Virus record (IMG/VR): IMGVR_UViG_3300022188_000013 | Location: 1 to 55,875 of that record | Strand: one strand, 5' to 3' | DNA: 55,875 nt | Source of the DNA: a virus | Lineage: Duplodnaviria > Caudoviricetes | Shown here: positions 32,950-55,875 of the stretch, in pieces | How positions within the stretch are numbered: position 1 is the first letter of the stretch | How the letters are laid out: every line of letters begins with the position of its first letter | The notes under the pieces: model-generated | The model's input: the letters and a program-made list of their open reading frames with translations, nothing else | Databases searched by the model: none | Told to the model about the DNA's origin: nothing | Position numbers and translations under genes: made by a program

Positions 32950-33690
32950 ATGGATGCACAAGAAAAGGAAGTTAGAAGATTTTTTTTAGGACCTGACGAG
33001 GAAACTAAATATTATATAGAAACACCCACTGCTGAAGATATTAGAGGTGCGGATTGGCAGTATAGTAAAATTTACACACAGTGTCTTGTAGAAGGCATAA
33101 CTACTGCTGCTGAGATGATGGATATTTTAAATAGAAGAGGAATTATCGGTCCAGAATTTGAACAACGTGTTAATGAGTTGGCTGAGAAGTTGACTGAAGC
33201 TATTACCCAACTAGAATTAACTGACGATATGAACGCTAAACGTGAAATGTCTATTGATGTAGCTAGAGCCCGTGAGGAGTTATTTCAGTGGAACCAGCGA
33301 CTTAATGGGCCTATGAACAATACCGCAGAACAGATGTCGGACGACTCTCGTCTTGAATATCTAACATCAGCTATGATTCTAAATTGTGACTATAATAAAG
33401 TATGGGATAGTTATGATACATATCTTAAGGAGAAAAGTCAAGCCTTAGCCACAAGAGCTAGATTTGAGGTAATGCTTTACTTGCAAGGGTTAGAGTCTGA
33501 TTTTCTTGATCAAACTCCAGAAGCCCAGGCTATGAAAGAGGTTGAAGCTGATATTATTTCCAAAGCACAAGAAGCTATTAAGGCGGCCGAAGCTGTGCAT
33601 GATGAAGAAGCTCAACAAGTAGAAAAAAAGTCGGTCGGTAAAAAGAAGGTATCTAAGAAAAAAACATTAAGTAAAAAGAAAGAAGAATAA
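32950..33690 (+). CDS. Putative tail assembly chaperone
   Basis: Acidic helical protein between tube and TMP genes (synteny). Confidence 0.55.
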   Translation: MDAQEKEVRRFFLGPDEETKYYIETPTAEDIRGADWQYSKIYTQCLVEGITTAAEMMDILNRRGIIGPEFEQRVNELAEKLTEAITQLELTDDMNAKREMSIDVARAREELFQWNQRLNGPMNNTAEQMSDDSRLEYLTSAMILNCDYNKVWDSYDTYLKEKSQALATRARFEVMLYLQGLESDFLDQTPEAQAMKEVEADIISKAQEAIKAAEAVHDEEAQQVEKKSVGKKKVSKKKTLSKKKEE

Positions 33691-33696
33691 AAAAAA

Positions 33697-34758: not shown

Positions 34759-34783
34759 ATTTTAATGTTTCGGAGGTGCACTC

Positions 34784-37700
34784 TTGGCTGATAATAACGT
34801 TAATATAAACATTAACGACAACTCCAACCGTAAAGGCTCAGCTGGCGGTATAGCAGGAAAAGCTGCCCAAACAAGTGTAAACGATCCTGCGTCAATAACC
34901 AAACTCGCTCGCCTATTAAAATCCGCTTTAGAAGAAAACTCTAAGAAGACTGGTGACGTCATTGACAAGGCCATATCTAAGCTAGTTCGTGTTATGGTCG
35001 AAAGTGCTGGTGGTGGTTCAATTAGCGATGCCGATATTAAGAGTATTATGAAGGGTGTTGGTAAAGAACTTGGCGACGAAGTTGTAAAATCTATTGCTAA
35101 AACCCTACCTAGGTCTTCCGGAGAAAAGCAGGATTCTACTGCTATAACTAAGGCCATAGACAACAGCATGGTAAGAGCTGCCGATAAAATGGCCCAGACT
35201 ATTTCAAGTCGACTATCAAAACAAGAGAACGTTTCAGTTAATTCAACAGAACTAGCTAAAGGAATCGCTAACTCTATGCGTAGAGCGGTGCCTGCTAGTA
35301 CTGATAAAGCTACAAGAGAACTTATACAGGCCATTGGCTCCATGAAAACTATTTTCAGAGATATTAAAACTTTGGTTAGTCAAATTGGATCTATGCGTAA
35401 GTCTGAGGGTAAAGTTGATGTTGGTGAGATTAGTAGTGTTCTTGGAAGCATTAAAAGAATTCTAACAGATTTTAAAGCTCTTTCACAGGAAGCTAGTAAC
35501 GCTAAAGATTCTTTGAAAGATTTAGCGTTAGAAAGTAAGCAGATGCTCGGTACTCTTACTACAGCTATTAATGATGTTAAGAGAAGTGCTGAAAAAACTG
35601 TTTCTGGTGTAAAGCAGAGAGCTGTTGGCGACCCTAAAGATTTTACTAAAGAAATTGTTACTTCTGTTGTAGGGATTATAACTAAATCAGAATCACTAAA
35701 AGGGACTTCTTTAGAGAAAGCTGTACGTAGTCTTGAGGGCAAGATCGGTGATATGTCCAAACTTTCTATTGAATTACAGAAATTTCAAAAAACATTTAAG
35801 CAGGAAATTACTTCTGGAACTATTAAAATAGAAGGTATTGAAAAGGTTTTAAAGGAATTTGATCAAATTGTAACAAAGCTAGGTAATGTGCCTAAGCAGA
35901 TTGGTATGGATAGAGCCTCTAAACAGGTTGGCATGGATAAGTCACCTAAGCAGATTGGTATGGGTAGATCTCCTAAGCAGATAGGTATGAGTAAGCCACC
36001 TAAGGAGTGGAAGGACTTCGCTAACTCTCTCAGTGGGTTCACACAGAGAACTACAAAATTAATTACACAAGTTAAACTTATAGTAGACGACTCTGAGATC
36101 AGAAAGATGATACCAGATGAAATTGCTGTAAAAATTACTCCAAAGGTTGAGTCTAAAACTATATACGATGATGTTGAAACAGCAATAATTCGTGCTCTTC
36201 ATGATGCTGAAAAGACAAAGATTACACCTAAAGTTGAACCGGTTGTTTCAAAAATTGAGATAGCTTTAAACAATAAAGATTTGGCAGGTATTAGAAAGGG
36301 GTTAGCAGAGCTTTCAAAGATTAAACTAGATTCTAGCCAACTTATCGATGATCTTAGAAAGAGAATTAATGTAATAGAAGGTAGTGCTGAACTAAAAATA
36401 AAGGCAGTTTTAGATACTAAATCTTATGACGATATGCTTGCTACTAAGGTTAAAGCTGATCATAAAAGACTTCAAGCAGCTTTGGCTACTACTGCTCCTA
36501 CTACTGTTGGGTCTACTGGCAGGTCTTTTTCAAAGATAGACCCAGTTGGCCGTTCTCTTTACAAACAGCAGACAGTTAAACCAGTTGAGGGTGGAGAGGT
36601 TAAACGTGCTAGTACTATTAGAATTTTGTCAAGAGATGCTCAAGGTATTAAGCAAGATACAGAGCAGAATATTAAAGCTTTGTCTGCTTCGTTATATAAA
36701 TTACAAGACCAGGTAGTTAGTGGGTTAGAGAAACAGTTTTCAGATGCTGAAAAGAAATGGGCTGTAGTTAAACCAACAGGAGGTACTGCAAGAGACGCTT
36801 TTAAATTAACTCCTGGTGAACGTCAGTGGACAATGCAAATTGCTAATCTAGATAGATTACAAAGAATAATGAAAGATTTTGATTCTGGTGTAATGGATTT
36901 AGTAAATGCGTATAAAGCACAGGCTGTACAAGAACGTGTTACTATGGCTGGTGGTCCGCAGAAACAGGCAGATTTGGTAGGACAATGGTTAAAGACTGTG
37001 TCTGCCCCACAGATTAAATCTGTAGAGGGTCTTGATAGTATAACAAAGGGTAAATTATCTAAGGTTAAGACCTCTTTTTCTGGTACAGACGTTAGTGACG
37101 AGATGCGTACACAGATACGTAAGCTTTTTGGTGATGTAAAACTAGAGAATATTTTTAGAAAAACTTATGCAGAATCTGAGGCTAAGCGTGAGTTACAGAG
37201 TGAGGGTTTAGTAAAACAGGTAGCTCTTCCTGCAGCTAAAGTGACAAAGACCGGTAGTGTTTCATTCCAGACGGTTCATGGTGCGGAACGTGCTTTGTCT
37301 AAATTTGCTAAGTTTGAGACTGGTTTTGAAAAACTTTATGAGGAGTTGACTGGTTTAGCTGTTAACGCAAGTAAAGAGGGTAAGAAACAAATTTTCACAG
37401 AAGCACGTGGTTTTACTGTAGCAATTAAAGAGTTGGGGGTACGCCCAGGCCCAGATAATTTAGCATCAGCGGATGCTCTTGCTAATAAGATGCTTTCATC
37501 TATAGTAAAAAATATAGGTGACAAGGCTGCAGGTTCTACATATACTAGAGAGTTATACACTGGGGCTGCTGCTTCAAAGAGGTTTGCAGTGAAAGAAGCG
37601 GGTGGAGATCCTGCTAAGTTCATGAAAGATTTTGAAGCTGCAATGTCAAGGACATATAAAAGTTTTGATGAGTTTTCAGCCGCTATGAAGGCGATAAACC

Positions 37701-40700
37701 TTTCAGCATATGATGTAGCTAAAAGTTTAAATAGTATAGAAGTTACTAATGTATACGATACAATTGGGAAGGTACTACAAGGGTCTAAGGGGTTATCTCC
37801 TATAACAACATTAGGTGAGAGTCCACAGTTCGAAAGGTCGGTTCGTGGATTTGAAAAAGCTGTTAGTGAAATTGAGGGGTTGATGCCTCTTTTAGAACAG
37901 AATCGTCCTCGTCGTGGTTTTCATCAAGAGAGTGTGGTTAATTTAATGTCTAGAACTGCTCCTTTTTATAGTTCAAAAGACAGACTTGATCCTGATGCAC
38001 AAAAGAAACTTATTAAAGATCTTAATTTAACTGTTAATGAGACTCTTACTAGAATCAAGCAGACAGACCCAACTAAACTTCCTGGTAATTTACAGAGGCT
38101 TACTAGTTTAGGTATTCCTGAATCACAGGCTGGTAATATAGAGGAGTACAGACAAGGTGGTACTAGCCAGACTAAGTTTTTGAAATCTTTGCAAGCAACA
38201 GGAATTAAATTATATAGCCAAGATTTGACAGCCCAAGCCCCTTTTCAACAGTTCCAACAGGTTGGTAGAAATATTTCTAATATAAGTAATGCCATGGTAG
38301 ATTTGGCAGGATCTGCAGAACTTCCTAAACTACGTTCTACAAAAGAGCGTGCCATTATTGAGAGTGGTAGATATGGTGAAAAGGGTTACGGTTATAACGT
38401 AACGGCAGAGTTACGTAATACTGCAGCTAACTTTGAGGATCAGATTATTATTGCCGGTAAGTTAGCGACTGCACTTACATCCGCTGTAAGTACTTTGGTT
38501 AAACCTAGTGCGACTGGCCGTGTTCGTGGTGCTACTACAGAGGATAGAATTTCTGGTACTGGTGTAACAGAACTCAAAGAACAAGAGATTACTAAGGTTG
38601 CCAGAGAGTATATGAGTATTTTAGGTGTGCCAGAGGAATATAAGGGGCGTGCAGATAAAGTTCTTATCGAGGACGTAAGGAAGACAGTCTCTGTTGTACG
38701 TGGTGAAGATGTAGAGGTACAGCAAGCTAAATTAGCTGAGACGTTTTTGAATTACTTTGGCAGAAAGATAACAACTAGATACGGGTCTAAGGGCGTTAGT
38801 GTTACTCCTACTGGACCTACTGAAAACCTTTCTGATATCATATCTAAATATTCTGGAGCAAAGATAAAGTTAGATCCGTCACAAACACTCGGTGCTGCTT
38901 TTGTACCTAAGACTATGGGTAAATTAGTTTCAGAGTTGTTTGGAGACAAAGTTTCTCAAGAGTTAAAGACCCAACTTATAGCTTCTGGTAATAAATTCAT
39001 TATTGACATATTTCAAAAAACAGGTAAAGGTGCTGTTGTTGCAGCTGATGAAGCTAAGAAGACTGCAGGATTATATAAAGAGTTTACTGCTGCTTGGGAA
39101 GATGTTTTTAGTAGTAAGGCTCCCAGTGTTGGTACTGGAGGAATAGCACAGATCCGGGGTAAATATCAGGATCGTTTTGGAGACAAAGCTCTAAAAGAAG
39201 TTAAACCAATCGATGTACGTATTAGTTCTTATGGTGCAGCTAAACGTGGTCTTCAGACTGAGTTTCTAGAATCTATATTCAGTAATGTAGCTGGTACAGG
39301 TAAAGGAGGCGTTACTACTGTAAAGAAACTTGATAAGCCTGCGTATGAGTGGCTTTTAAAGCACGGTGGTTTATCTAAATATTCATCTGCATTGGGGTTT
39401 AAGGGGTCAGGTAAGATGGAGGCTCAAATAGCTCCAGAGCTTTACAGTAAGTTTACTGGTAAGCCTGCAGACAAGTTTGCAGAAGCATTAGCTTCGGGGG
39501 ATGAAAAAGCTGTACTGGCCAAACGTGCTGCTTCTTTAGAGGCTGCTTCTAGTTTTTACTCTGAGCTGATAGATGAGTTTGGTAATAAACGTACCGGTCT
39601 TATTGGTGAAAAATTTCTACAGATTGTAGAAGAACCTGGTGAAAATCCAGAATGGCAACGAGGTCAGATTGATAGTGGGATGAAGGGGGCAAGGCTTAAT
39701 CTTCCAGCATTCTCAGCGTATGCTACTGTGTTTGGTGAGCAGTCTAATTTTATGAAAGAGTTACAAGGTAGTCTCGATGTTAACGCTAAGAAACATTGGG
39801 AATACATGAAGGCCCTGCAGACTATTCAGGATGAAGATAGTACCGTTTACAAGAATATTACTAAGGGATTGAAAACTGTGGATATTGGTGATCTTAGATC
39901 ATTTGATTCGTCTACTGGTGTTTATGGTAAAAAGCATATTACAGATGAAGCTGGTAATCAAGTAATCAATCAGAGAAGTTTTGATGACACAGTTTTAGAT
40001 CTAAATAAGTTTTCTGAGGCTTTTAAGATTGCAATTCCTACAGGTAAGTATGGTCCGGAAGGAGAGATTAAGAAGCAAGAGTTTTATGTTCCAGGAGCCC
40101 CTGCTAGAGGTACATACCCAGAACCGCTACTTGCAGGTGAAAGGGGCATGGACCAGATTACTCGCCGTTTGTCGCATTTTGTAAATATGGCTAAAGAGTT
40201 GCAGGAAGTTATGGAGGACCCAGATAAGTCTTTAGATGCAAATGATATTAGAAAAAAGATTCCACCAGTTATAGGAACATGGATTGGTGAGTCTTGGGAT
40301 ATAGCTAAATCTAAGGCTCCAGATGCCGAGGAACAATTGAGCGGTATACTTAACAAAATGTTTTCAGCTATGTCTACTACAAGTGCCCCTAGTTCATCAC
40401 TAATTAATACTTCTGGTAGGACAGAACAGCAGTTTGCTCAGGATTTCTATAAAGGTCAAATTAACAAAGTATCTCAGGGGCTCAAGACAAAGCCAGAAGC
40501 AATGGCAACTACTATATCCACTATGGGGGATTTGTTAGTTGGTAAAAAGAAGGGAACCCATGAACAGTTGGCAGCTCCTACAGGATTAACTCGTGCATTA
40601 GATCAGGGTATTGGTGGAGTTTTCGCACAGAAGTTGGGCATAGATGTTGTGCAGGACACTATAGATAAACGTGTATCTGCATTAAATAAAGCTAGAATAG

Positions 40701-43700
40701 ATTATTATAACTCACTTGCTGATGCTGCTACAGGGAAAACTGGAAGTATTAATGAGTTGTTGTTTAGTAGAAAGATTCCTGCTGTCATTGGAAAAGCTGT
40801 TACGGCAGTAGTAGATAAGAGAGATGATATTACAAAGTTTGGTAAAGATTTAGTAACCATAGAGTCTAAATATGGTGTTAATCTTGGTGTATCTGCTGAT
40901 AGTTTAGCAGATATTTCTAAGAAACATTCAGAGGCAGTTGTAAATTACCAGAAAATAGGTGTGCCAGTTTTAAAAGAAACAGAACTTGGAGTACCTACTA
41001 CTTTTGCCAAGAAGATACCTTTAGATTTTGTTAAGAAGTTTGTTGACACAAAGGATCCAATTATGGGGGTTAAGGAACAGAAGCCTGAAGCTGTTTCTGG
41101 TACACTGTACGATCTTCTTAAACATATAGAACAGATTAGAGAAGGGGCTAAAAAAGAGTCTCCTGGAATGCAGGATGTTCTTTCTAAGTATATAGACGAT
41201 GAGCTTGTGCCGTATGTAGAGAGTATTCGTTACCCGTTTACAGGTACTTCATCCATAGTTCCGTTTAAACCTAAGTTACTGGAAGAAAAAGATTATCAGA
41301 CAACCGAAGGTACTAAGCTCGCTAGAAATGTTCTAGTAGCCCCAGGTGTACCTGAAGGTTTGGATGAATTGTCGCCTATTTTAAGTAATTTACAAGAACG
41401 GCTCAAAGATGAAATTTCTAACAGAGAGAAGTTACAGAAAGCTGGGGTTCCTCAGGAGGAGATAGAAAGAGCTACAGGGCTTATTAGAGATCTTAGTGCT
41501 GCTATAGCAGAAGTTATTCCTAAGTACACTTCTCAAGCACAGAAACTTGATTTTGACGGTGATCAGATAGAGCTTCATTCAGCAAGAACAGTATCTGCTA
41601 GAAAAGATATAGAATCTCATTTTAAAAGATTTCACACAAGGGATAGTTCTAAAGATCCTTATACTGCTGACGTGTTTAGAACACAATTTTTATCAGAAGC
41701 TCCAGTTGCATCTACAGGACAGTACGTACTTGGTGAATCTTCAGCAGCGTTTGAGAAAAAATTTCCAGCTGGTAAAGGATTTGATTTTCTCCAAAGTCCG
41801 TTCTTAACAAAAGAACTTGAATACTTATCTTCAGGGGAAGCCCTTAATGTACTTAAGGATAACCCAAATATAGGTAATGTAGAGAACGTTATTAAGGATG
41901 TTCTAGTAACACAAAATAAACCTATTGATCAGATTGCGTCCGTAATGGAAACGATAGGTAATGTAGATACATCAGACGCAGACAAAGCTACTCAAAATAT
42001 AATGGAGGCTATCGGTGCCCATCATGCAGATCTAATGACTGTTATTGAGAAGGGTATTAAAAAGAGGTTGTATGAGGAAAAACTTGGAGACGCCATTGAA
42101 GCCCAGTTGTTTAAGGTACATACTGGCCCTGAAGTTGAGTCTTTATATAGAGTTCAAAGGCTTGCAGAGTCGTCTGTAGGTTTTGGAGGCGGTGAAATTG
42201 CAGGACGCCCAGATAAGAGTTCTAAGTATTTTCAAAGTCGTTTTCCTTCTAGTTTGAAGTCTATGGGGGGTCGCCCAGAAGAAGAATTTAATACAATGAT
42301 GAATGAGGTGGTTCGTTTCGGTATTCAGAAAGGTATGGACGTTAAACATGCAGGAGAAAAACCAGTAGCTGGTGAGATGGTTGGTTATCTTACTAGAGGC
42401 GTTAAGGGGGCTACAGAGCTGTGGTCAAGAGTACAAGATGAAAATGATAAAACTTTTGGTGATTTAAGAGATTTTGCTGGGGCTAACGAATCCGCGGTAA
42501 AAATGAGGCTAGGTGCTTTATCCACATCTGACATTATGTCAGAAGCCAAGAAGGTTATAGACTCTCGTGGTGAAAAAATGGATGTGTCTGGTATGGATAG
42601 GGAAGCTTTAATTCAACTAATGGTAGATAAGATAGGTTTCAAGGGGTTTCTTGAGGAGCTTTCTAGATTAATAAAAAAAGAAGCTATTGATGGGTTGATA
42701 GCACAGGCGGAGACTTGGTCGTCAGCTAAGAAGAAAGATCCTGGAGGAGGTTTACCTGAGGTTAAAGATAGTATAAAAGACTGGGCAAATCAAGCTGTCC
42801 AACAGCAGATGGAACGTGGAGGTATTAATATTCGTCAGGATATTACAGAAGGGAAGCAGCCTTTGTATGGTATGCGTACGTTTTTTTCGTCACCAACAGC
42901 TGAGTATGACAAATACAGAGGTAAGTTTGGCGATTTACAAGTACCTGAAGGTGAATTAGAAGGTTTGTCTGAGAAGGATACTAAATCTTACAAATTTAAA
43001 TATAGAAAAGCAGCGGCTACTGCTTCTAATATTAAACAAGAACTAAGGTCTTTTGCTGGGAGTAAGCAGGGCGGGGCTTACGCTGATATGATTAGAGGTG
43101 CTGTTGACGCATTGTATAGCCAACAAGAAGAAGTTGAAAAATATATAACTGCTTTAATGAAAGAAGGTTACAACTCAGAGGCTTCTAAAGGTGTTGCTAT
43201 AGCAGAGCGTACATTGTCTAGAAGCGGTGTTTCTGATTTTGCTAACTCAGTTCTTAATATGAGAACTGGTATGAAAGATGAGGTCTCTAGGCTTTCTGAC
43301 CTTGCAGGAGTTCCTGGATTAAGTAATACTGAGATGTTTGGTATTCGTCGTGAATCTTCAGAGAAATTTGCAGATATTAAACACAGTGAACTTAAAGATA
43401 CAGGAATGTCTGAAGAGGAGGTTAACTCTTCTGTTAAGGATTATGTAGACAGAATGGTAGATAAAGCACAAGCACTTGCACAATTAGACAGAGTAATTGA
43501 CTCTCTAGTGTCTAAAAAGTTTGAGGGAAGAGTGTTGCAAGATTTATTACCAAGACCAGATAAGGTAAGCCAATATAGTACTTATGATAAGACCCGTGGT
43601 GAGGCTTTTACTGCTGCTAGGGAAAAGATGAAGTTTAAGAATGGACGAGCCAGATTAACACAGCCGGCTGCTATGGCTTTTGGTAAAGAAGGAGGCCCTG

Positions 43701-49700: not shown

Positions 49701-52700
49701 GAGATCCTAATTCTAGAAAACAGGCAACTCAATTAAGAGCTTTTGAAATAACAACTCAAAGTAATATGGATATGATAGACAAACTTGAGCGTGCTATTGT
49801 TCATATCGATGATATATCTTCCGTGGCAGGGGGATTTGGGGCAAGTATGTCTACAGAACAACTACAGAACTATGTTGAAAAGGTGGTCCCTGAAAGAGGG
49901 GAAGGTCCATTCTATGAGTTGACACAGATAGATAAGGGGATAGAACAGAATACCTCTAATACAGTGGATAAACTAGATAAGATATTAGAAAATCTAGGAG
50001 ATCCAGAAGCTGTTGAGAAGAGTTTAACTAGTATATTTGATAATTTAGGGGCTGGTTTAGGTGTAGGTGTGAGTGGAAATGCACTGAAGACAGTAAACGC
50101 GTTAGAGCGTGTTTCTAGAGTTAGAAAAAAGGCAGAGGGTAGAGGTGATCAAGACACTGTAATATCTTCAAATAAAGCATTAGATATATTGTCTAAGCAG
50201 CTTATAGCTCAAGTAGGTTACAAGAAGGGTATGGAGATGGTAAGTAGTAATACTACTCTCTTTTCTAAACGGTTTACTGGTAGGGAATTTCAACAAAGAG
50301 CATTTTCAGGTGTGGATTCTAAGGTGTTTTTGGACAGACTAAAGAAGTATGGTCCAGAAAAGAAAGGTTTTCTTGGGATAGGTAGTCGTCCTCCTATGGA
50401 GGAAAGTAAAGCTTTTAAAAATTTTGAGAAGGCTCAGCAGGCTACCGTAAAACAGACAACTTTTTCTAGCAAGAACTTAGCTAGAGTTGGGGCTGTTACT
50501 GCAGCACTTTCCAAGATTCAACAGTCTGGAAATAAAAATATAATTAGTAAGATAGACGAACAAATATCAATTATAGATCAACAGGTTACAGATAAAAGAC
50601 AAGCTGGTGCTGGTGCTGATGAGTTAACTGGGTTAATAAAGAAACGCGAATCTTTAACTCTTAAAAGAGATGAAAAACGTGGTGAGGCTGATTTTTATGG
50701 CACTGTTGCGGCAATCAGTGCCACAGGTTTTGCAGCTGTAGAGCTATCAAAAGCGTTTGGTTTAACCGAAAAACAAATTAATGCCTTAGGTGTAGGTGCT
50801 GCTGGTACTTACGCAGCAATGGTAATAGCCTCTAAGGTTACTGGTGAACAATTACCAGATAGTGCTAAGAAGTTCGGTGAAGAAATTAAGCGGCTAGGTA
50901 AGAAGACAATTCAAGGTGAGAAGCCTGGTTTACGTGATGCTAAAATGCTTAAAAATGCAGGTAAGGAGATGTCTAGAGACTTTGTCGACAGAACTAAAAA
51001 AGTGTTTGGTAAAAGTGCCAAAGATATAGGAACAGCTGCTACAAAAGTAGATTCAGAAGAGTTAATAAAGAAATTGGATGCTAGTTTGGGTCGTCGGGCT
51101 AAATCCATGAAAGATTACACTTCTCTGGGTCCAGATTTTGCTAAGTACGCCGCTATGATGAGAAGTCAAACTAAAGAAAAGTCTGGTCTTTTGGAGGATG
51201 GTAAAGCAACAGATTCAGCGGTTTACAAGGATCTTACAACGCGTCAGAATGCTGAGACTGCCAAGTTTTTACGTGGTTTAGGAAGAGAAGATAAACGCGA
51301 TGTTTTGTCTAAATACCCTGTTACAGGTAAAGACGACTTGCATAAGTATGTGGCTGAGTCTTTTGGCCCAGAGTTAGAAAAAACTGGTGAGTATATGGTA
51401 CGTGGTTTAGAGAAAGCAGAAGCACCATCTAAACTGAAACAGGCTATAGTGGCTTATTTGGCAGTCGGGTTGTCTGATTATATGTCTAATAAAACTGCAG
51501 ATAAGACTGCATTGGCAGAGACAGAAAAGATTATGAAGCGTCAGTCAGAAGCATTAGCTGAGCTCATTAGGAAATACCCAGATGCAGCTGAGATGGCTTT
51601 AACTGATTTACAGAAAGAAGTAGGTACTGCTGTAGCTGAGGTATCCGATATTACTACTATTGACAAGTCTATGGTGCAGGATACCAAAAAAGCTAAAGAG
51701 TCTATTAAACGCCAGATAGCTGAAATTAGAGATACATATATAGAAGAACAAAAGAAAGCTCTTGATGAGCAAAGGAAAGTTCAGAATAAGTTTGCAGATA
51801 GAGAGTCTAGAGAAAGTTTAAAGATTAAACAAGAAACAGCAGCTCGTGACAGAAGGGGTCAAATAGATTCGTTTAACATAAGCCGTCGTTTCTCCCCAAC
51901 TAACTTACTAAATAAACAATTACAAGGTTTTTCGGGGGAAGTGGAGCTTCCTATAGCTGAAGATCAGATGTCTACCCAGCAAAGGGTATATAATGACTCC
52001 GGTAAGAGCTTTAAAGGTGTTATAGATAGTTTTTCTGCCGGTGTGCAACAATTAGAAAGTATGCGTAATAATTTAGAAATGTTAAAACAGGCGGCGAGGG
52101 TTGAGGAAGATTTAGTAGATACTACTGACGATGATGATGTAAAAAGAAGGGCTAAAGAACGTCACAAAGATCTTAATGACACTATGACAGACCAGATTGG
52201 TGTGATAGGTAAGTTTGCCGAAAAACTTAGGGAGTTTGGTAAGTTAAAGGGATTGTTTGATCAGTTTGCTAGCTCTATGCACCGTCTAAAAGACTCTCTC
52301 AAGGAGATTGGTGTTCAAGAAGCTGTAGAAAATATACCAGGTATGCAGCAGTATAAAGGCCGCATGAACAAGTTATTGGGCGGGACAGATCCAGATGCTG
52401 TTGTTCCAGTGTCTACTGAAGAGTCTCGTATGAGTAGTAGAGTAGGTATGGATTTACAGCATATGTTGTCAACTAAATATGAAGTGATGAGGGCACAGTT
52501 ACTTGATCAGTTAAGAACTGCTTCACCAGACGAAGCTAGTAAACTTAGAAGACAGCTTTCTGATTTACCAGAGCAACGTGTAAGAGATATACAGGCGTTT
52601 AAACAACGTGAGGAAGATGACAAGTTACGAAGAGGATTACAACCTTATGAGAAACAGGTCACAGAGCTTGGACGTGTTAAAGCGTCTCCTTTTATAAGTG

Positions 52701-55700
52701 GTAAGCAGGTTATGGCTGCAGGACATATGCAGCAAGAATTAGTCGATATTCTAAATAATGCGGCAAAAAGGATAACCATTGAACAAGCTCGTAAGGAGCT
52801 TAAAGCAAACAAAGGAAGTCTTACTAGAAAGGAGTACAAAGCAGAACAAAGTAAAATAGACGAACTTGAGAAACAGGGTACACCACTAACTTACAGGGGA
52901 ATTAGACCTTGGGACCAGAAAAAAGTACGTAATATGTCAGTAGAGATCCAAGAAGCTATGAAGAAGGCAATGATGGGTTCAAAAGATGGATTAGAAGCAC
53001 AGCTTATTTATGATCCGATAGTTTCAGCTATTACCGATACAAACGCTATTCTAACAATGATAGCTGAAAAAGAGTTTGGTATTGATTACGATAAGAGTTT
53101 TATTGGTGATATGCAGGATAGAGCGTCTAAGATTGGAACAAGGGGAACTGATAAAGTAAAACAGTTCATGGAGGTTTTAAATCCTACAGACATAAGGAAC
53201 CCATTTGAAATAGCTGGTGATGCTATTACTAGGTTTGTAGACAGGCTTGGCGGTTTCGAACCAGAACGTAAGCCTTTCGAGAAAAAAGCTGCCGGAGGAA
53301 GGGTGTTTGGTCCAGGAGGACCGAAAGAAGATAAGGTGCCGGCCTGGTTAAGCCCAGGTGAGTATGTAATTAGGGCTAATTCAGCACAGAAATTAGGTCC
53401 TCAAGTACTTGATTACATGAATTCTAGTGGCAATGTACCGTCATCTATACCAACATTTAGTAATGGTGGTAATGTGTCGTCATCTGTACCAGTATTCAGT
53501 AATGGGGGTAAAGTGTCTTCAATTTCTGACGATATGCAGAATTTTGTTAGTTATCTAGAATCAGAAAGATTGGCATTATCGGACAAAGATATGACACCTG
53601 GAAGCTTGATGAAGCAAGCTGGTCTTGCTACTACAGAGTTGGTTACTAGATTACTTAAATCTCCTGTTGATTTTGGAGCTATGACAGAAAAAATGGCAGG
53701 GTTTGCTGGTAGTGAAGGTTTTGGTGCTACTTTAGATGTTGGAAAGCAAGTGGGTAGTAATTTAATTGATCTCGTAAAAGGAGGTATTACCTCAGAGCAA
53801 GTAGCTAAAGTTACTGGTGGTATGAAGGAAGGTATTAGTAAAGGCGGTATGGGTATAACAACAGCTATACTTGAGACTTTGCTTGGAGGTACTGCGGTAG
53901 TTAAGAAGTTGGCACCACCTACTGATTCACTTAAGGGACAGCTTAAGCTGTTAGCCAAAGATGTTGATCCTATAGTATCGGAACAAGCTAAAGACGCTCT
54001 TAGTTCTCAAGCGGTTAAAGAACTTTCAAAAAGTAAATCCTTTAAAAAAGATTTTAAATATTTGGCCGGTGGTAATGAAGCTTTAGTATTCAAGCGTGGA
54101 GATAAAGCAGTCAGACTAGGCGGACTTAGTAGCCCAACAGCGTTGGAAAAAGTAAGGAAAGGTAATATATTTAGTATTGCTGATGAGCTTACAGATGAAG
54201 AATTGTTGGCTAAAATTGGACAGCATTTAACTAAACGAGAGCTAAATGAAATCGGTTCAGCTAATAAGTTTCTAGCCCATGGTAAATTTAAAGATAAGGA
54301 CATTTCAATCTCTACGTTACTTGACACAGAAAAAGTTAAAAGTTTAGATCCTGTATTAGGTATTAGAGGCATGTTAGAAAAGCAGGGGGCTGTTCCTGGT
54401 AATTATGGGCAAACTTACTTTAGTAGGGGTAAGTCTGGTCAGTTTTACCAAATTGGTGATCTACATCCTGGAAATTTTGGTTTCGATAAGAAAGGTAAGC
54501 TTTCAGGAATAGATCCGGGTATGTATAAAAAAACTGATTTGGATAAACTTCCATACGATGCACAAGATGCTTTTTTTAAAAAGAACCAAGATCCTACATT
54601 GTTTGATTTGAAAGGTAAAGTACTAAAAAAAGCTGAAGGTGGTATAGTAGAAAATTGGCTTAAAACTGCAAAAGAGCATTGGTTTGGTAAAAAAGAAGAA
54701 ACAGAAGATGATGAAAAACTTCTTAGAAGAATAACTGAAGATAGAGGTATATCTTTTGATGAGGGTGCAGGAGGTTCTTACTTTGAGACCGGTAAACAAA
54801 AGAGGAAACGTTATGATGAGATGTTGGGTTATGCTTCTGGTGGTAGGGTTGGAGTAGATGTGGACGAACGAGGAAGACCTATACATTATTACACTGCTGA
54901 TGCTTCAGGGTATGCTAGACACGATAGCAAAGAAGATTTTGATGCTGCTGTTAATAGAAGAAAAGAAGGGAATGCCACACAAAACGGTAGTACTGTTCAA
55001 TCTAATCCTAGTGGTTTAACACAAGCTGAAATTACACAAAGAATTGAAGAGGCATATGGGCCTGCCAATGAAAGGGTTACAGAAAGATTGTTTCCTGAAA
55101 TAGAAAAAAAGTCTCGTCCGGAAAATATTTTTGCGGATACTCCTAAGCAGTTAGATGCCAGTAGTTTAAACTACAATAACGCAATGAAGTATATTGAAAA
55201 TGTGTATAAGCGTATTAGTGGTGGAGTTACAAACAGTTCATCACTTAAAACCAAAACACAAATAAATCTAGAGGAGAGTTTGACTACTAATGGTATATTT
55301 AACAAAGTTAGTGCGTCTTCTCGTGCTTCAGAATTCGCCGAGGTTATGCAGAACATTGAAGCTGCGTATGGGCCTATTAATGATGCGGCTACAAAAAGAC
55401 TGTTTTCTGTAGACATACCGTCTTTCGATTCATACGATCAACTCAGTAGTGGGCTTGAAACAACAGGACAATACACTAGAAATGTAGTAAACGCTGTCGT
55501 ACACCCATTTGAAGCTTCTAAAAAAGCTGCTAAAGCTTCTTACGGAGTAGGTTCGAAGTGGGCTGAGAAAGCTTACGGAGTTGGTTCAAAGATAGCGGTG
55601 CCAACTTACGGAGTTAGTAAAGACATAATAGGGACTGGCAAAGAGATGATTACAAACCCATTAGAAGCTTTGAAGACTTCTGTTAAAGCTGGTTACGGAG

Positions 55701-55875
55701 TAGCTGCGAAGGGTACTAAAGCTGGTTACGTAGTCGCTGCGAAGGGTACTAAAGCTTCTTACGGAGTAGGTTCGAAGTGGGCTGAGAAAGCTTACGGAGT
55801 TGGTTCAAAGATAGCGGTGCCAACTTACGGAGTTAGTAAAGACATAATAGGGACTGGCAAAGAGATGATTACAAA
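34784..55875 (+). CDS. Giant multidomain tape measure protein (>7,030 aa, 3'-truncated): RNA polymerase + PD-(D/E)XK nuclease + TP901-type TMP core + kinase-like domain
   Basis: GGAGGT RBS then TTG. Same frame in every segment I translated, and the track lists no stop-terminated ORF in this frame. TMP core at ~46080-47200 (FSNAVRRVTLWGAAS..FAQQG..AVTRQTGKEVGTSFRFIFRRL); TMP C-terminal motif AAGGRVFGPGGPKEDKVPAWLSPGEYVI at ~53290. Confidence 0.92.
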   Translation, partial: MADNNVNININDNSNRKGSAGGIAGKAAQTSVNDPASITKLARLLKSALEENSKKTGDVIDKAISKLVRVMVESAGGGSISDADIKSIMKGVGKELGDEVVKSIAKTLPRSSGEKQDSTAITKAIDNSMVRAADKMAQTISSRLSKQENVSVNSTELAKGIANSMRRAVPASTDKATRELIQAIGSMKTIFRDIKTLVSQIGSMRKSEGKVDVGEISSVLGSIKRILTDFKALSQEASNAKDSLKDLALESKQMLGTLTTAINDVKRSAEKTVSGVKQRAVGDPKDFTKEIVTSVVGIITKSESLKGTSLEKAVRSLEGKIGDMSKLSIELQKFQKTFKQEITSGTIKIEGIEKVLKEFDQIVTKLGNVPKQIGMDRASKQVGMDKSPKQIGMGRSPKQIGMSKPPKEWKDFANSLSGFTQRTTKLITQVKLIVDDSEIRKMIPDEIAVKITPKVESKTIYDDVETAIIRALHDAEKTKITPKVEPVVSKIEIALNNKDLAGIRKGLAELSKIKLDSSQLIDDLRKRINVIEGSAELKIKAVLDTKSYDDMLATKVKADHKRLQAALATTAPTTVGSTGRSFSKIDPVGRSLYKQQTVKPVEGGEVKRASTIRILSRDAQGIKQDTEQNIKALSASLYKLQDQVVSGLEKQFSDAEKKWAVVKPTGGTARDAFKLTPGERQWTMQIANLDRLQRIMKDFDSGVMDLVNAYKAQAVQERVTMAGGPQKQADLVGQWLKTVSAPQIKSVEGLDSITKGKLSKVKTSFSGTDVSDEMRTQIRKLFGDVKLENIFRKTYAESEAKRELQSEGLVKQVALPAAKVTKTGSVSFQTVHGAERALSKFAKFETGFEKLYEELTGLAVNASKEGKKQIFTEARGFTVAIKELGVRPGPDNLASADALANKMLSSIVKNIGDKAAGSTYTRELYTGAAASKRFAVKEAGGDPAKFMKDFEAAMSRTYKSFDEFSAAMKAINLSAYDVAKSLNSIEVTNVYDTIGKVLQGSKGLSPITTLGESPQFERSVRGFEKAVSEIEGLMPLLEQNRPRRGFHQESVVNLMSRTAPFYSSKDRLDPDAQKKLIKDLNLTVNETLTRIKQTDPTKLPGNLQRLTSLGIPESQAGNIEEYRQGGTSQTKFLKSLQATGIKLYSQDLTAQAPFQQFQQVGRNISNISNAMVDLAGSAELPKLRSTKERAIIESGRYGEKGYGYNVTAELRNTAANFEDQIIIAGKLATALTSAVSTLVKPSATGRVRGATTEDRISGTGVTELKEQEITKVAREYMSILGVPEEYKGRADKVLIEDVRKTVSVVRGEDVEVQQAKLAETFLNYFGRKITTRYGSKGVSVTPTGPTENLSDIISKYSGAKIKLDPSQTLGAAFVPKTMGKLVSELFGDKVSQELKTQLIASGNKFIIDIFQKTGKGAVVAADEAKKTAGLYKEFTAAWEDVFSSKAPSVGTGGIAQIRGKYQDRFGDKALKEVKPIDVRISSYGAAKRGLQTEFLESIFSNVAGTGKGGVTTVKKLDKPAYEWLLKHGGLSKYSSALGFKGSGKMEAQIAPELYSKFTGKPADKFAEALASGDEKAVLAKRAASLEAASSFYSELIDEFGNKRTGLIGEKFLQIVEEPGENPEWQRGQIDSGMKGARLNLPAFSAYATVFGEQSNFMKELQGSLDVNAKKHWEYMKALQTIQDEDSTVYKNITKGLKTVDIGDLRSFDSSTGVYGKKHITDEAGNQVINQRSFDDTVLDLNKFSEAFKIAIPTGKYGPEGEIKKQEFYVPGAPARGTYPEPLLAGERGMDQITRRLSHFVNMAKELQEVMEDPDKSLDANDIRKKIPPVIGTWIGESWDIAKSKAPDAEEQLSGILNKMFSAMSTTSAPSSSLINTSGRTEQQFAQDFYKGQINKVSQGLKTKPEAMATTISTMGDLLVGKKKGTHEQLAAPTGLTRALDQGIGGVFAQKLGIDVVQDTIDKRVSALNKARIDYYNSLADAATGKTGSINELLFSRKIPAVIGKAVTAVVDKRDDITKFGKDLVTIESKYGVNLGVSADSLADISKKHSEAVVNYQKIGVPVLKETELGVPTTFAKKIPLDFVKKFVDTKDPIMGVKEQKPEAVSGTLYDLLKHIEQIREGAKKESPGMQDVLSKYIDDELVPYVESIRYPFTGTSSIVPFKPKLLEEKDYQTTEGTKLARNVLVAPGVPEGLDELSPILSNLQERLKDEISNREKLQKAGVPQEEIERATGLIRDLSAAIAEVIPKYTSQAQKLDFDGDQIELHSARTVSARKDIESHFKRFHTRDSSKDPYTADVFRTQFLSEAPVASTGQYVLGESSAAFEKKFPAGKGFDFLQSPFLTKELEYLSSGEALNVLKDNPNIGNVENVIKDVLVTQNKPIDQIASVMETIGNVDTSDADKATQNIMEAIGAHHADLMTVIEKGIKKRLYEEKLGDAIEAQLFKVHTGPEVESLYRVQRLAESSVGFGGGEIAGRPDKSSKYFQSRFPSSLKSMGGRPEEEFNTMMNEVVRFGIQKGMDVKHAGEKPVAGEMVGYLTRGVKGATELWSRVQDENDKTFGDLRDFAGANESAVKMRLGALSTSDIMSEAKKVIDSRGEKMDVSGMDREALIQLMVDKIGFKGFLEELSRLIKKEAIDGLIAQAETWSSAKKKDPGGGLPEVKDSIKDWANQAVQQQMERGGINIRQDITEGKQPLYGMRTFFSSPTAEYDKYRGKFGDLQVPEGELEGLSEKDTKSYKFKYRKAAATASNIKQELRSFAGSKQGGAYADMIRGAVDALYSQQEEVEKYITALMKEGYNSEASKGVAIAERTLSRSGVSDFANSVLNMRTGMKDEVSRLSDLAGVPGLSNTEMFGIRRESSEKFADIKHSELKDTGMSEEEVNSSVKDYVDRMVDKAQALAQLDRVIDSLVSKKFEGRVLQDLLPRPDKVSQYSTYDKTRGEAFTAAREKMKFKNGRARLTQPAAMAFGKEGGPASASMMGGAGGVVPVHLVGTDPGVTLNVKGLEGLGLVERVPTSVDRVAEMDIELQQFAKDTKELGDILKKTKPPRTGGRSTSYEDFYSPSKFAGGGFAYSGGAKEFTEEGRLKEQVERIARDMISREPLAPASQALADWGSAIHAKFEKSLEKQGNVEVEKYGEFVDGVGGVIGGFADIVEYEGTEKKKVTTVADIKTVGVDKFEKIQSAVKKAGSTDFTEVSKQLDDRTALQLEDNFSQLNAYLKIFDETAKAEIRFYDREGRGENIEDYTAVSFGFDPERFQKDMQALASARTIVKQAGGKKFLRTNVRNQAGAAKPEGASTEELDRAMELAKQAYERERGGGGIRAMASGIGASKRGKEYEKARKGTKAAAEQMSRKEMYKNLTPSELDKYLVPPQAVEGETAEAFLTNLKLLHDQSKLYQKSKGLSIDTTDKMPKQIKESIESVKDSGPDYQSFIDLTGKLKEMDRPDFTGMDMINVWKLYRIAVGDWLFKRADDAYEEMQALEAAGDVRGSNQKYGDFTNRVSRAQEFVRRSVGKRTDIYTDDKRFVYPSLAKKAGVYMSPSQVMKKAGEPLGDDPKLIESFRGVVQGIKSETGKTPPVEAARAIFGDLSNMNKDFAKILSDGEKFKRLGPEILDAWDFDKLTARTTRLRAALQEILRDNKEMDAEQRKNVENIVKYLKKVEGMYSHMNLGGEQTGYGQTGIVPVPKFETPANQRALHARNIQSTREYFRRPSEEGGPDIGERFSYSEKIVGQAGETIKNVTHHFSKYGEELLASGQKVGQFSESQQDIIEKMQKVNATFSNAVRRVTLWGAASRLVYGSVSNLKSSLDELTNIEMGVASLRMVMSPLETDFQKMTKSASGLAKQYGVPVTDVLKSMKVFAQQGLKQGDVISRTKTATLASNVTTLNSKEATEALTAAMRVFREEGSQSLRFLDAWSEVEAKHAITADDMANAIKKSAAAAKSAGVNFDQLNGMVAAVGAVTRQTGKEVGTSFRFIFRRLFAEEGPKTLAKLKIPTLTPEGELRGAFDVLGDLAGQWDDLTSAQRMNVAQSIGGTRQYNSVLVLMDQWDEVLRGIRNSTNSKGSAERRNAEIMKTYGKQLERTKAAATEFKMEIGNIVLPTFTAGAKSLTFLFEALTAIPTPIKAASAALAAFFTFGAKGINLFDSIGSGVEKGASLFSNFGNEFSKSMKIAKYEILGKADATTNIFGLKTLTPTATKTANAVKQKGFPLTEQGEKMSDFHSSIGKTMSLLQGWGRGYNEMIGGMIVGTGALTEKVGEGAQDVGAFLSLAAGGADNVGLEGLKDVLQGGAARKGLSAVAIKSVLKGQGVMKGGAKLLVRFAALASEIVGSATYLTGQAVDAVGEQVGAGGHKILKDFTTQNTGFVKSVAPLALTVAAMVPAIKAASEYFGKMTNSAQGFEKIMDGARRKNESQLKSVRDMVQEYEALSGQVKNVEKVRDPEVKARRQELGTYESPLTTLQKVQGRAVDLTNQIADSNQNLVVGYDDLGNAVLKTGKNFKSYLKDIENLDVQAGVATELEILGKYLDDLSSGNKTEKVKMAFKELAAAFPVIGDLVGRHIKVSPAQQLEVAATDLNKRLNLKQKYPLSTAGDADIKRLQGVLGKARDAYKDTFSDMTRVYSTVLSRANLRGLNKGQIEEVVGSPELRKAYEMQIKIDPRFKLVEGVKWQDIMGKELITALNPSTAGSLDVVSEFTKANLESAGVKPRSGKAASGDIVMFHKDMADKYNIAGAQAIVKLKDTDEWVIEYFNTRTLKLEERSLSDVDNMVESIFPLQKVKEDIAYRMDALNTFVAGASAGLTGLSKKDFKRDFNLGERFFGEIPTTTLLQGNKGFLPGSGYGELEGMKDFKGDIENYFFKPMGELRNKTEQFKKLQLEGLDVSDTAISKGFYDEINKLLDVLKNNQVVLQFRAVFVDLMKEMSTGQRVLREELAIMRRRADINVTPGGLTRGMPIGLENIDLGIRDVRDVTARQSLLTRDPNSRKQATQLRAFEITTQSNMDMIDKLERAIVHIDDISSVAGGFGASMSTEQLQNYVEKVVPERGEGPFYELTQIDKGIEQNTSNTVDKLDKILENLGDPEAVEKSLTSIFDNLGAGLGVGVSGNALKTVNALERVSRVRKKAEGRGDQDTVISSNKALDILSKQLIAQVGYKKGMEMVSSNTTLFSKRFTGREFQQRAFSGVDSKVFLDRLKKYGPEKKGFLGIGSRPPMEESKAFKNFEKAQQATVKQTTFSSKNLARVGAVTAALSKIQQSGNKNIISKIDEQISIIDQQVTDKRQAGAGADELTGLIKKRESLTLKRDEKRGEADFYGTVAAISATGFAAVELSKAFGLTEKQINALGVGAAGTYAAMVIASKVTGEQLPDSAKKFGEEIKRLGKKTIQGEKPGLRDAKMLKNAGKEMSRDFVDRTKKVFGKSAKDIGTAATKVDSEELIKKLDASLGRRAKSMKDYTSLGPDFAKYAAMMRSQTKEKSGLLEDGKATDSAVYKDLTTRQNAETAKFLRGLGREDKRDVLSKYPVTGKDDLHKYVAESFGPELEKTGEYMVRGLEKAEAPSKLKQAIVAYLAVGLSDYMSNKTADKTALAETEKIMKRQSEALAELIRKYPDAAEMALTDLQKEVGTAVAEVSDITTIDKSMVQDTKKAKESIKRQIAEIRDTYIEEQKKALDEQRKVQNKFADRESRESLKIKQETAARDRRGQIDSFNISRRFSPTNLLNKQLQGFSGEVELPIAEDQMSTQQRVYNDSGKSFKGVIDSFSAGVQQLESMRNNLEMLKQAARVEEDLVDTTDDDDVKRRAKERHKDLNDTMTDQIGVIGKFAEKLREFGKLKGLFDQFASSMHRLKDSLKEIGVQEAVENIPGMQQYKGRMNKLLGGTDPDAVVPVSTEESRMSSRVGMDLQHMLSTKYEVMRAQLLDQLRTASPDEASKLRRQLSDLPEQRVRDIQAFKQREEDDKLRRGLQPYEKQVTELGRVKASPFISGKQVMAAGHMQQELVDILNNAAKRITIEQARKELKANKGSLTRKEYKAEQSKIDELEKQGTPLTYRGIRPWDQKKVRNMSVEIQEAMKKAMMGSKDGLEAQLIYDPIVSAITDTNAILTMIAEKEFGIDYDKSFIGDMQDRASKIGTRGTDKVKQFMEVLNPTDIRNPFEIAGDAITRFVDRLGGFEPERKPFEKKAAGGRVFGPGGPKEDKVPAWLSPGEYVIRANSAQKLGPQVLDYMNSSGNVPSSIPTFSNGGNVSSSVPVFSNGGKVSSISDDMQNFVSYLESERLALSDKDMTPGSLMKQAGLATTELVTRLLKSPVDFGAMTEKMAGFAGSEGFGATLDVGKQVGSNLIDLVKGGITSEQVAKVTGGMKEGISKGGMGITTAILETLLGGTAVVKKLAPPTDSLKGQLKLLAKDVDPIVSEQAKDALSSQAVKELSKSKSFKKDFKYLAGGNEALVFKRGDKAVRLGGLSSPTALEKVRKGNIFSIADELTDEELLAKIGQHLTKRELNEIGSANKFLAHGKFKDKDISISTLLDTEKVKSLDPVLGIRGMLEKQGAVPGNYGQTYFSRGKSGQFYQIGDLHPGNFGFDKKGKLSGIDPGMYKKTDLDKLPYDAQDAFFKKNQDPTLFDLKGKVLKKAEGGIVENWLKTAKEHWFGKKEETEDDEKLLRRITEDRGISFDEGAGGSYFETGKQKRKRYDEMLGYASGGRVGVDVDERGRPIHYYTADASGYARHDSKEDFDAAVNRRKEGNATQNGSTVQSNPSGLTQAEITQRIEEAYGPANERVTERLFPEIEKKSRPENIFADTPKQLDASSLNYNNAMKYIENVYKRISGGVTNSSSLKTKTQINLEESLTTNGIFNKVSASSRASEFAEVMQNIEAAYGPINDAATKRLFSVDIPSFDSYDQLSSGLETTGQYTRNVVNAVVHPFEASKKAAKASYGVGSKWAEKAYGVGSKIAVPTYGVSKDIIGTGKEMITNPLEALKTSVKAGYGVAAKGTKAGYVVAAKGTKASYGVGSKWAEKAYGVGSKIAVPTYGVSKDIIGTGKEMIT
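35891..36004 (+). repeat. 27-nt (9-aa) tandem repeat x4 in giant ORF
   Basis: PKQIGMDRA SKQVGMDKS PKQIGMGRS PKQIGMSKP. Confidence 0.9.
37200..42400 (+). other. Domain of giant ORF: fused beta/beta' two-barrel DNA-directed RNA polymerase
   Basis: Collinear motifs HGAER 37277, NFEDQI 38429, GRKITTRYGSKGV 38759, PIDVRISSYGAAKR 39206, SLADAATGKTG 40712, RYP 41228, DFDGDQ 41549, GIQKGMDVKH 42320. Confidence 0.9.
43950..44560 (+). other. Domain of giant ORF: PD-(D/E)XK (RecB/Cas4-like) nuclease
   Basis: WGSAIH, E, IGGFAD, ADIKT, SQLNAY in correct order. Confidence 0.8.
54050..54530 (+). other. Domain of giant ORF: protein-kinase-like fold
   Basis: YLAGGNEALVF (G-loop), DLHPGN (catalytic loop, 54458), IDPG (DFG-like). 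Confidence 0.7.
55530..55875 (+). repeat. Exact 127-nt direct repeat (55530-55656 and 55749-55875, period 219 nt) built on 11-aa units
   Basis: KASYGVGSKWAEKAYGVGSKIAVPTYGVSKDIIGTGKEMIT twice, with KAGYGVAAKGT-type units between. Confidence 0.92.

Follow-up and report, generated by a model that had tools for sequence, protein, structure and literature searches.

Introduction

The closest described counterpart of the gene reported here is gp96 of the Thermus phage P23-45, a tape measure protein (TMP) of 5,002 amino acids (aa) whose N-terminus is an active two-barrel virion RNA polymerase (RNAP) (Chaban et al. 2024, PMC10770324). In the passages of that paper used here, the RNAP is reported to stay part of full-length gp96 in virions, to transcribe the pre-early genes, including that of a second, non-virion RNAP, and to be flat, without a clamp; the authors called the fusion a "previously unsuspected association" (PMC10770324). 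In the present study, we analyzed a contig of 55,875 nucleotides from an uncultured phage (IMG/VR record IMGVR_UViG_3300022188_000013, positions 1 to 55,875; completeness 21% by CheckV). This whole contig is called the window below. We describe in it a giant gene at positions 34784-55873, which probably encodes a TMP carrying an RNAP and an exonuclease in front of its ruler part. To our knowledge, TMP-RNAP fusions are known only from four related Thermus phages (P23-45, P74-26, G20c and TSP4). The virion RNAP of another phage, N4, is a T7-like enzyme.

In N4 (gp50) and in crAss-like phages (gp66), the RNAP is located in the particle within a very large protein and is delivered with the DNA (PMC10770324, in the passages used). 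Unlike the window protein, these belong to podophages, which have no tape measure. No further paper on a TMP-fused polymerase was found in the literature searched, and the supplements of PMC10770324 may list the lineage of the window. In the consulted part of the moraphage paper PMC12619734 no TMP was found, and that of PMC7824862 mentions no TMP-RNAP fusion.

Results and Discussion

The giant gene and its family

The open reading frame (ORF) listing and the translation gave a single frame without any stop codon, open at its 3' side.

34784-55873, plus strand: giant tape measure gene, 7,030 codons; the contig end cuts the gene and its 3' end is missing
34772-34776, plus strand: Shine-Dalgarno sequence GGAGG, 7 nt 5' of the TTG start, read from the sequence

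The original prediction, which was made from the sequence alone, had claimed a 21-kb ORF of more than 7,000 aa, and the translation agrees with it. The prediction had also named a stop, a frameshift or a misassembly between the enzyme part and the TMP core as the finding that would speak against it. None was found: the frame is open, and the same architecture recurs in 53 homologues.

These homologues were obtained with aa 1400-3300 as the query and proteins of 3,866-12,303 aa as targets. Out of 746 candidates scored, 53 were colinear with the giant protein. They are 5,023-7,998 aa long, show 27-65% identity and lie on contigs of up to 318 kb; together with the window protein they are referred to as the 54 members. 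In BLAST comparisons, aa ~600-5400 of the window protein were aligned in 44-53 of the 53 homologues, aa 1-600 in ~20-25 and aa 5400-6300 in 21-35, while the part past aa 6300 was aligned in at most nine and that past aa 6700 in none. The N-terminal motif D(V/I)NININ of the giant ORF was found again in homologues. The complete homologues have a conserved C-terminal end in common, which the ORF of the window does not show.

IMG/VR contained 12 loci with long matches and two with weak ones; no locus was confirmed when IMG/VR was scanned with aa 4400-5399 as a single sequence, and tblastn of aa 1601-3000 against 50,697 GenBank phage records gave no match. Among five relatives searched, three have complete frames (7,652, 7,939 and 7,751 aa), and in one the giant gene is cut by the contig end. 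The complete frames are directly followed by an ORF of 675-687 aa, which has no Pfam match. CheckV estimated a completeness of 49% for a 129-kb record and 87% for a 238-kb record, and these values correspond to genomes of ~265-275 kb.

The ruler part

The following elements mark the ruler part.

46283-46876, plus strand: TP901-type TMP core PF10145, aa 3834-4031, in a wider TMP match at aa ~3712-4430
53282-53485, plus strand: C-terminal TMP motif, aa 6167-6234
47081-50983, plus strand: conserved block behind the core, specific to the family, aa ~4100-5400; 44-53 of the 53 homologues align here
47864-47929, plus strand: hydrophobic segment, aa 4361-4382, within a Gly/Ala-rich stretch (Kyte-Doolittle, 19-residue window)

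The core matched PF10145 with an E-value of 1.1e-27 (97.7 bits against a gathering cut-off of 33.2), and all 53 homologues carry this domain. From aa ~3740 onward, 13-14 tape-measure PHROGs matched (phrog_4211, E 1.5e-77). In addition, tblastn found annotated TMPs in 133 GenBank phage records with a best E-value of 2e-34, only over aa ~3712-4120; 21-24% of a 1,700-aa query around the core is common to the window protein and these GenBank TMPs. The C-terminal motif was matched by phrog_25241 (E 5.5e-14) and four other TMP PHROGs, and phmmer of aa 3501-7030 against PDB sequences matched it to 8zdo_S, "Tape measure protein (gp16)" (E 2e-4). In this family the motif does not close the protein, since complete relatives extend ~300-1,175 aa further. 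The block at aa ~4100-5400 had no Pfam or PHROG match. We take as the ruler part the stretch from the TP901-type core (aa ~3,790) to the C-terminal motif (aa ~6,230), that is, ~2,450 aa.

The position of the core at about residue 3,770, far from the N-terminus, had been predicted together with the statement that TMP cores usually lie nearer the N-terminus. Both points are supported. In the TMPs of the cultured Bacillus phages Stills and vB_BanS-Thrax2, which share the PF10145 core with the window protein at 26-28% identity (E down to 2e-34), the core begins ~270 and ~570 residues in and the protein is 2,243-3,031 aa long, whereas the match begins here at ~3,712.

It might be supposed that the product, rather than measuring the tail, is an internal protein for ejection or cargo, comparable to those of N4 and crAss-like phages, and that it has merely acquired a PhageMin_Tail domain. 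Virion RNAPs fused to large proteins are indeed known from N4-like and crAss-like podophages (PMC10770324, in the passages used), and beside the gene we recognized neither a tail tube protein nor a sheath or distal tail protein. We consider this explanation very unlikely, because the TMP core is accompanied by the C-terminal TMP motif, ~2,200 residues away, the core resembles TMPs in the 133 records, which are of cultured siphophages, a hydrophobic Gly/Ala-rich segment follows the core, and upstream there are fibre-like genes that encode Mtd_N, Big_1 and PKD domains.

The three ORFs directly upstream of the giant gene (474, 246 and 336 aa; 31170-34707) are syntenic with L011:1471-5000 of a relative of 40% identity. 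They matched no Pfam or PHROG family and are candidates for the tail tube protein and the TMP chaperones. The sheath families PF04984 and PF17482 had no match in five relatives, which are fragments, one of them 87% complete. We tentatively regard the tail as probably non-contractile.

The RNA polymerase module

36641-42883, plus strand: conserved RNAP module, aa ~620-2,700, aligned in 46-53 of the 53 homologues
38432-38794, plus strand: beta-like double-psi barrel motifs, FEDQ at aa 1217-1220 and GRKxTTRxGxKG at aa 1326-1337
39827-41650, plus strand: beta'-like module, aa 1682-2289, with the metal-binding DFDGD at aa 2256-2260 (nt 41549-41563)
L034:5001-8537 (relative G006): free-standing two-barrel RNAP, a single chain of 1,178 aa with the motifs NFEDQ and THGNKGV
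34784-36583, plus strand: variable Lys-rich leader, aa 1 to ~600, 12.8% Lys
35891-36004, plus strand: 27-bp repeat (9 aa, PKQIGM...) within the leader, 4.2 copies, found with Tandem Repeats Finder (TRF)

On the basis of its motifs and predicted fold, we assign aa ~620-2,700 to a single-chain, two-barrel DNA-dependent RNAP, in which a beta-like barrel is followed by a beta'-like barrel. No other part of the giant protein is as well conserved. Exactly one D[FY]DGD occurs in each of the 54 members, and FEDQ, GRKxTTRxGxKG and DFDGD are invariant in a family alignment of 34 rows. The motifs NFED and G.K...RHGNKG of cellular beta have counterparts in the giant protein.

An AlphaFold model of aa 1150-2349 was then compared with known structures. 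With Foldseek, 49 of the 50 top rows were RNAP largest subunits. With VIA-align, all 50 rows listed were beta', Rpb1 or A190 chains, with Z up to 11.9 over 237-271 residues, a root-mean-square deviation (rmsd) of 4.3-6.2 and 15-19% identity; model residues 533-1140 were placed on residues 24-495 of E. coli beta'. The part alike in cellular beta' is ~240-270 residues and includes the double-psi beta-barrel with NADFDGD (Z 11.3-11.9). In an unbiased fold search of 48,161 chains, ranks 1-4 were RNAP largest subunits (Z 10.6-11.6), and the non-virion RNAPs of the jumbo phages phiKZ and AR9 appeared at Z 8.1. The giant protein differs from the multisubunit, phiKZ and AR9 enzymes in that both barrels lie in one chain, the zinc-binding cysteines are missing, and the module is embedded in a predicted virion protein.

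The beta-type barrel with its conserved lysines appears to be present, and the support for it is indirect, running via the free-standing RNAP of the relative. By hhalign, the family profile matched this 1,178-aa protein over 168 columns of the beta-like barrel with a probability of 92% and an E-value of 5.5e-7. The best local hhalign matches to E. coli beta and beta' sit on GDKMAGRHGNKGV and NADFDGDQMAVH, respectively; they are weak (E 0.21 and 0.015), and the former lies at residues 1064-1076 of E. coli beta.

Several results weigh against this assignment. The AlphaFold model is mediocre (predicted local distance difference test, pLDDT, 68; predicted template modelling score, pTM, 0.35), and its first ~220 residues, which correspond to the beta-like barrel, are poor. 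The Foldseek E-values are weak (at least 0.013), and helical-bundle rows of Z 8-10 are interleaved with the RNAP rows in the unbiased search. PF00623 reached only 14.5 bits at 41540-41614 (E 0.0013; cut-off 25.3), PF00562 had no match in the window, and the family profile of the RNAP region found no RNAP among PDB sequences, its best match being apolipophorin (E 0.003). Likewise, when PDB sequences were searched by phmmer with aa 1-4000 and aa 3501-7030, one TMP match appeared and the rest was coiled-coil noise.

The leader is shorter than had been predicted. It had been put at ~800 aa, and the block conserved throughout the family already begins at aa ~600-620.

The nuclease domain

43904-44626, plus strand: PD-(D/E)xK exonuclease domain, aa 3041-3281, with GFADIV at aa 3147, DIKT at aa 3167 and SQLNAYL at aa 3211

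Our analysis of models and motifs indicates that aa 3041-3281 form an exonuclease of the PD-(D/E)xK type, similar to lambda exonuclease, RecE and Cas4. The AlphaFold model of aa 2650-3849 as a whole is mediocre (pLDDT 68, pTM 0.34), which counts against relying on it; within it, aa 3041-3281 stand out as a confident alpha/beta domain. VIA-align gave Z 11.5 to the phage exonuclease 3k93 (182 of 223 residues aligned, rmsd 4.2), Z 11.3 to the Cas4 protein SSO0001 (4ic1) and Z 10.6 to lambda exonuclease (3slp). Rows 1-19 were all PD-(D/E)xK nucleases, and they were followed by unrelated helical rows with Z of 7.1 or less. Foldseek returned a probability of 1.0 and TM-scores of 0.5-0.57 on target length, and a Cas4-like PHROG matched at E 6e-4.

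Taken together, lambda exonuclease, RecE, phage YqaJ-like proteins and Cas4 share the fold with this domain at Z 9.5-11.5 over 160-190 of ~200-230 residues. The motifs D...(D/E)xK...QxxxY are common to these nucleases and to the domain described here, which differs in lying inside a predicted virion protein of 7,000 aa. The (D/E)xK...QxxxY pair occurs at the equivalent place in 45 of the 54 members. Because the protein has no cysteine, the domain cannot hold the iron-sulphur cluster of Cas4, and it is therefore not a Cas4 proper.

A polymerase and a nuclease upstream of the TMP core in one frame had been predicted, and both were recovered, the polymerase through its motifs and beta'-like fold and the nuclease through its fold and motifs. 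It can be asked whether these regions have lost their activity and persist as structural relics whose sole effect is a longer ruler. In line with this, no RNAP Pfam model reaches its cut-off, and the zinc-binding cysteines of beta' and the iron-sulphur cysteines of Cas4 are both absent. In opposition to it, the catalytic residues stay conserved at identities as low as 27% (DFDGD in 54 of 54 members, FEDQ and the lysine-bearing GRKxTTRxGxKG in 34 of 34 rows), the nuclease pair is widely retained, and conservation is highest in the RNAP block. We think that a relic is improbable to a high degree and regard the regions as candidate enzymes.

Absence of cysteine

The giant protein contains no cysteine in its 7,030 aa, and cysteine makes up 1.56% of the residues in the 26 other ORFs of the window. 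The 54 members have 25 cysteines in 400,388 residues, and 38 of them are entirely free of cysteine. For comparison, gp96 of P23-45 has none in 5,002 aa, and E. coli beta' has 15. The extension of this lack over the enzyme domains fits the passage of these domains along the TMP route. It must be weighed against this that ordinary Bacillus phage TMPs also avoid cysteine (0 in 2,243 and 1 in 3,031 aa), so that the avoidance is a general trait of TMPs.

The region after the C-terminal TMP motif

53427-53521, plus strand: 39-bp (13-aa) repeat, 2.4 copies (TRF)
54059-54520, plus strand: unconfirmed kinase-like motif region, aa 6426-6579, with a GG-rich loop, GDLHPGN (6558) and IDPG (6576)

The family diverges past aa 6234, and TRF found repeats of 13, 11 and 73 aa in the window. 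On the kinase-like region, the Pfam family ABC1 gave only 12.5 bits (E 0.08; cut-off 22.9). This stretch is common to one homologue only, P0003 (46% identity), and in both sequences an Arg occupies the position where the beta3 lysine is expected. No shorter homologue of the region was found, and there was no match among 1.84 billion representatives; the ESM Atlas gave only leads of 0.84 or less, one cluster being 11% T7-kinase. No credible Pfam match (E of 0.05 or less) was obtained in aa 6100-7030 of the window protein, the last 1,500 aa of three relatives or three downstream ORFs.

The region past the C-terminal motif is, as judged from the sequences, a variable slot, with the kinase-like motif here and other domains in relatives. 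One relative, P0022, carries a PT-TG pre-toxin domain there (E 1.1e-11), and a single HExxH was found in the C-terminal region of 18 of the 54 members, which is estimated to be far above chance. The original prediction had described kinase-like and repeat modules after the motif and enzyme cargo on both sides of the core. The repeats are confirmed. The kinase-like module is a motif without support from family, fold or homologues, and the claim of enzyme cargo on the C-terminal side is unproven for the window.

Comparison with gp96 and proposed mode of action

The window protein and gp96 agree in having a two-barrel RNAP with DFDGD upstream of the ruler, in one ORF, without cysteine. The phage of gp96 has a second, free two-barrel RNAP (gp64), and in the lineage of the window one was found in the relative G006. 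The two proteins differ in several respects. DFDGD lies at aa 779 of gp96, whereas in the window protein a leader of at least 600 aa precedes the RNAP, and the window protein has the PD-(D/E)xK nuclease in addition. The family of the window reaches 7,650-7,940 aa in genomes of ~270 kb, against 5,002 aa and 84 kb. No PF10145 match was found in gp96, only Peptidase_M23 at aa ~3161-3251; the window protein has PF10145 and no M23, its 3' end being missing. Furthermore, the fold search for the window RNAP lists beta'/Rpb1-type chains with clamp elements, in contrast to the clampless gp96.

The RNAP part of gp96 (aa 1-1200) showed no detectable similarity to the family profile (hhalign probability 0.3%, E 0.23), and the analogy is therefore one of function and not of descent. 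P23-45 gp96, N4 gp50, crAss gp66, QDE-1 and YonO were not among the 50 rows listed of either fold search, and they may nevertheless be related to the window RNAP. We think that the two TMP-RNAP fusions, that is, gp96 and the family of the window, are probably independent.

The reading that we favor, with some reserve, is that the ORF encodes the TMP of an uncultured jumbo phage of ~270 kb with an N-terminal extension of RNAP and exonuclease, and that this protein is ejected like gp96. By analogy with P23-45, the whole cysteine-free chain would be built into the tail, probably in an extended or metastable form. At infection it would be expelled through the tail tip, the TMP part would form a channel in the envelope, and the N-terminal enzymes would enter last, beside the leading DNA end. 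The virion RNAP would then transcribe the pre-early genes, likely including that of the separate 1,178-aa RNAP of the lineage, and the nuclease might act on host or entering DNA. Location in the virion, ejection, enzyme activity and the absence of cleavage are what we infer from gp96 only.

Delivery of enzymes into the host is thus a probable second role of the tail ruler, as had been proposed from the sequence. The core far inside the protein, the RNAP and nuclease in frame with it, and the precedent of gp96 are in favor of that proposal; its C-terminal enzyme cargo and its description of the product as a polyprotein are unproven. Delivery by the ruler is not a new idea, as it was demonstrated by experiment for gp96 and published in 2024 (PMC10770324).

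Other observations count against the favored reading, besides the lack of similarity to gp96. In one relative, the giant gene is present as two ORFs.

L011:5060-18652 and 18652-23769 (relative G004): giant gene split downstream of the TMP core into two ORFs with a 1-bp overlap, 4,530 aa and at least 1,706 aa

The split may be genuine or may stem from an error of sequencing; as it stands, a single chain is not universal in the family. In addition, three folded polymerases of ~200 kDa cannot be accommodated in folded form in the lumen of a tail.

These points lead to a different explanation, in which the product is a true polyprotein that undergoes cleavage as the particle assembles, the RNAP and nuclease being set free and packed in the head or neck as separate ejection proteins and only the ~2,450 aa from the core to the motif measuring the tail. 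That folded enzymes do not fit the tail lumen is established knowledge, the gene of G004 shows that the parts are able to work as separate chains, and the leader and the linkers at aa 2,700-3,040 and 3,280-3,790 are long and poorly modelled. The split in G004, however, lies after the TMP core and leaves the enzymes attached to the core. The RNAP of P23-45 was found in virions within full-size gp96 (PMC10770324, in the passages used), cysteine is avoided as fully in the enzyme part as in the ruler part, and we identified neither a protease gene nor a protease site. We regard cleavage as rather unlikely, while giving it serious weight, and retain ejection of the intact chain as the preferred reading.

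The two ways of storage differ in the tail length that they predict. The scale of a ruler is 0.15 nm per residue, and P23-45, with 800 nm for 5,002 aa, has 0.16 nm per aa. If the whole chain is the ruler, proteins of 7,650-7,940 aa predict tails of ~1.1-1.2 um, and the part from the core to the motif alone predicts ~0.37 um; a tail of 0.37 um as opposed to ~1.2 um would separate the models.

Tentatively, and conceding that it may well prove wrong, the findings can be joined into a wider picture. The family would be a second, independent virion RNAP-TMP fusion in widespread uncultured phages of ~270 kb, with the largest TMPs described, working as a modular injection device. In this picture, a fixed N-terminal takeover unit, consisting of the beta/beta'-type RNAP and the exonuclease, would enter beside the DNA end, and an exchangeable C-terminal cassette (PT-TG, HExxH peptidase or kinase-like), resembling that of polymorphic toxins, would reach the envelope first. 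A second family without detectable polymerase or ruler similarity to gp96 would make the TMP-RNAP fusion a recurrent solution and not an oddity, and it would widen the known size range of phage structural proteins. It would also sharpen the question of how a ~200-kDa enzyme and a nuclease are stored in or behind a tail channel of ~4 nm and work after ejection, for which the near-strict absence of cysteine across 400,000 residues and the natural split variant offer testable handles.

The free-standing RNAP of a relative

The free-standing RNAP of G006 matched Rpb2_6 with E 1e-4 (22.0 bits; cut-off 23.4) and Rpb1_2 with E 3e-4. From its sequence, it is a candidate non-virion polymerase and a candidate paralogue of the TMP-fused RNAP. 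No second RNAP was found in the 55.9-kb contig of the window, which is 21% complete.

Two further genes were noted on the same contig of G006. At L034:11462-13963, a helicase (ResIII/Helicase_C) is interrupted by an intein with a LAGLIDADG domain, and it is adjoined by a phiEco32-like COOH-NH2 ligase at L034:13998-15194.

The contig end and the assembly

55530-55875, plus strand: terminal repeats, an exact 127-bp repeat around 2.8 copies of a 33-bp unit (55684-55777); assembly break

The contig terminates in an exact direct repeat of 127 bp (55530-55656 and 55749-55875, offset 219 bp). To stop inside an exact repeat is the signature of a break by a k-mer assembler, which means that the 3' end of the gene is missing. 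The last 73 codons of the ORF may be a duplicated unit.

Contigs from further public runs were compared with the window. In four runs they cover every one of the 30 bins of 35900-55875 without joints, and one contig of 8,241 bp, whose run is possibly the source sample, covers 45512-53752 free of gaps. Contigs of the runs X7, X4 and X3 depart from the path of the window at 55660 into an in-frame alternative, and that of the fourth run extends in frame past 55872. These extensions show that the ORF goes on, with an uncertain number of copies of the 219-bp unit. The runs in which the stretch occurs carry the label hydrothermal vent metagenome; of the 13 runs listed, seven contain at least 0.9 of the sampled words, six of these seven being possible sources.

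The 127-bp repeat, being typical of an assembler break, might raise the suspicion that the gene is an assembly chimera, or that the frame is open by chance. The same architecture is found in the 53 homologues, which come from several sources, in 12 IMG/VR loci and in the jointless contigs of the four runs, and 21 kb free of stops are impossible by chance at 37-40% GC. We consider the probability of such an artifact to be practically negligible.

Run X7 contains a strain variant at 40561-44608 with 330 substitutions and in-frame deletions of 6 nt (43693) and 3 nt (43700). This variant is an instance of population diversity within the linker between RNAP and nuclease.

Other genes of the window

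The adjacent ORFs 13277-14443 and 14466-16781 have an N-terminal Mtd_N domain (E 6.5e-10 and 1e-11) and are likely fibre or receptor-binding proteins. Mtd_N is the N-terminus of the major tropism determinant of the diversity-generating retroelements of Bordetella phages. The large ORFs 8023-10446 and 22131-24398 contain Big_1 and PKD immunoglobulin-like domains and probably encode virion decoration or fibre proteins.

LAGLIDADG ORFs are located at 214-1041, 1834-2610, 28912-29796 and 30064-31023, and HNH or homing endonuclease ORFs at 3302-4114, 4108-5580 and 25421-26320; the ORF at 4108-5580 also matches a Mom-like DNA modification family. These seven homing-endonuclease-like ORFs, scattered over 31 kb of a structural gene module, are unusually dense. 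All 28 long ORFs of the window lie on the plus strand, except for two short antisense ones, and the GC skew is positive in every 2-kb bin of 1-55875 (0.16-0.33).

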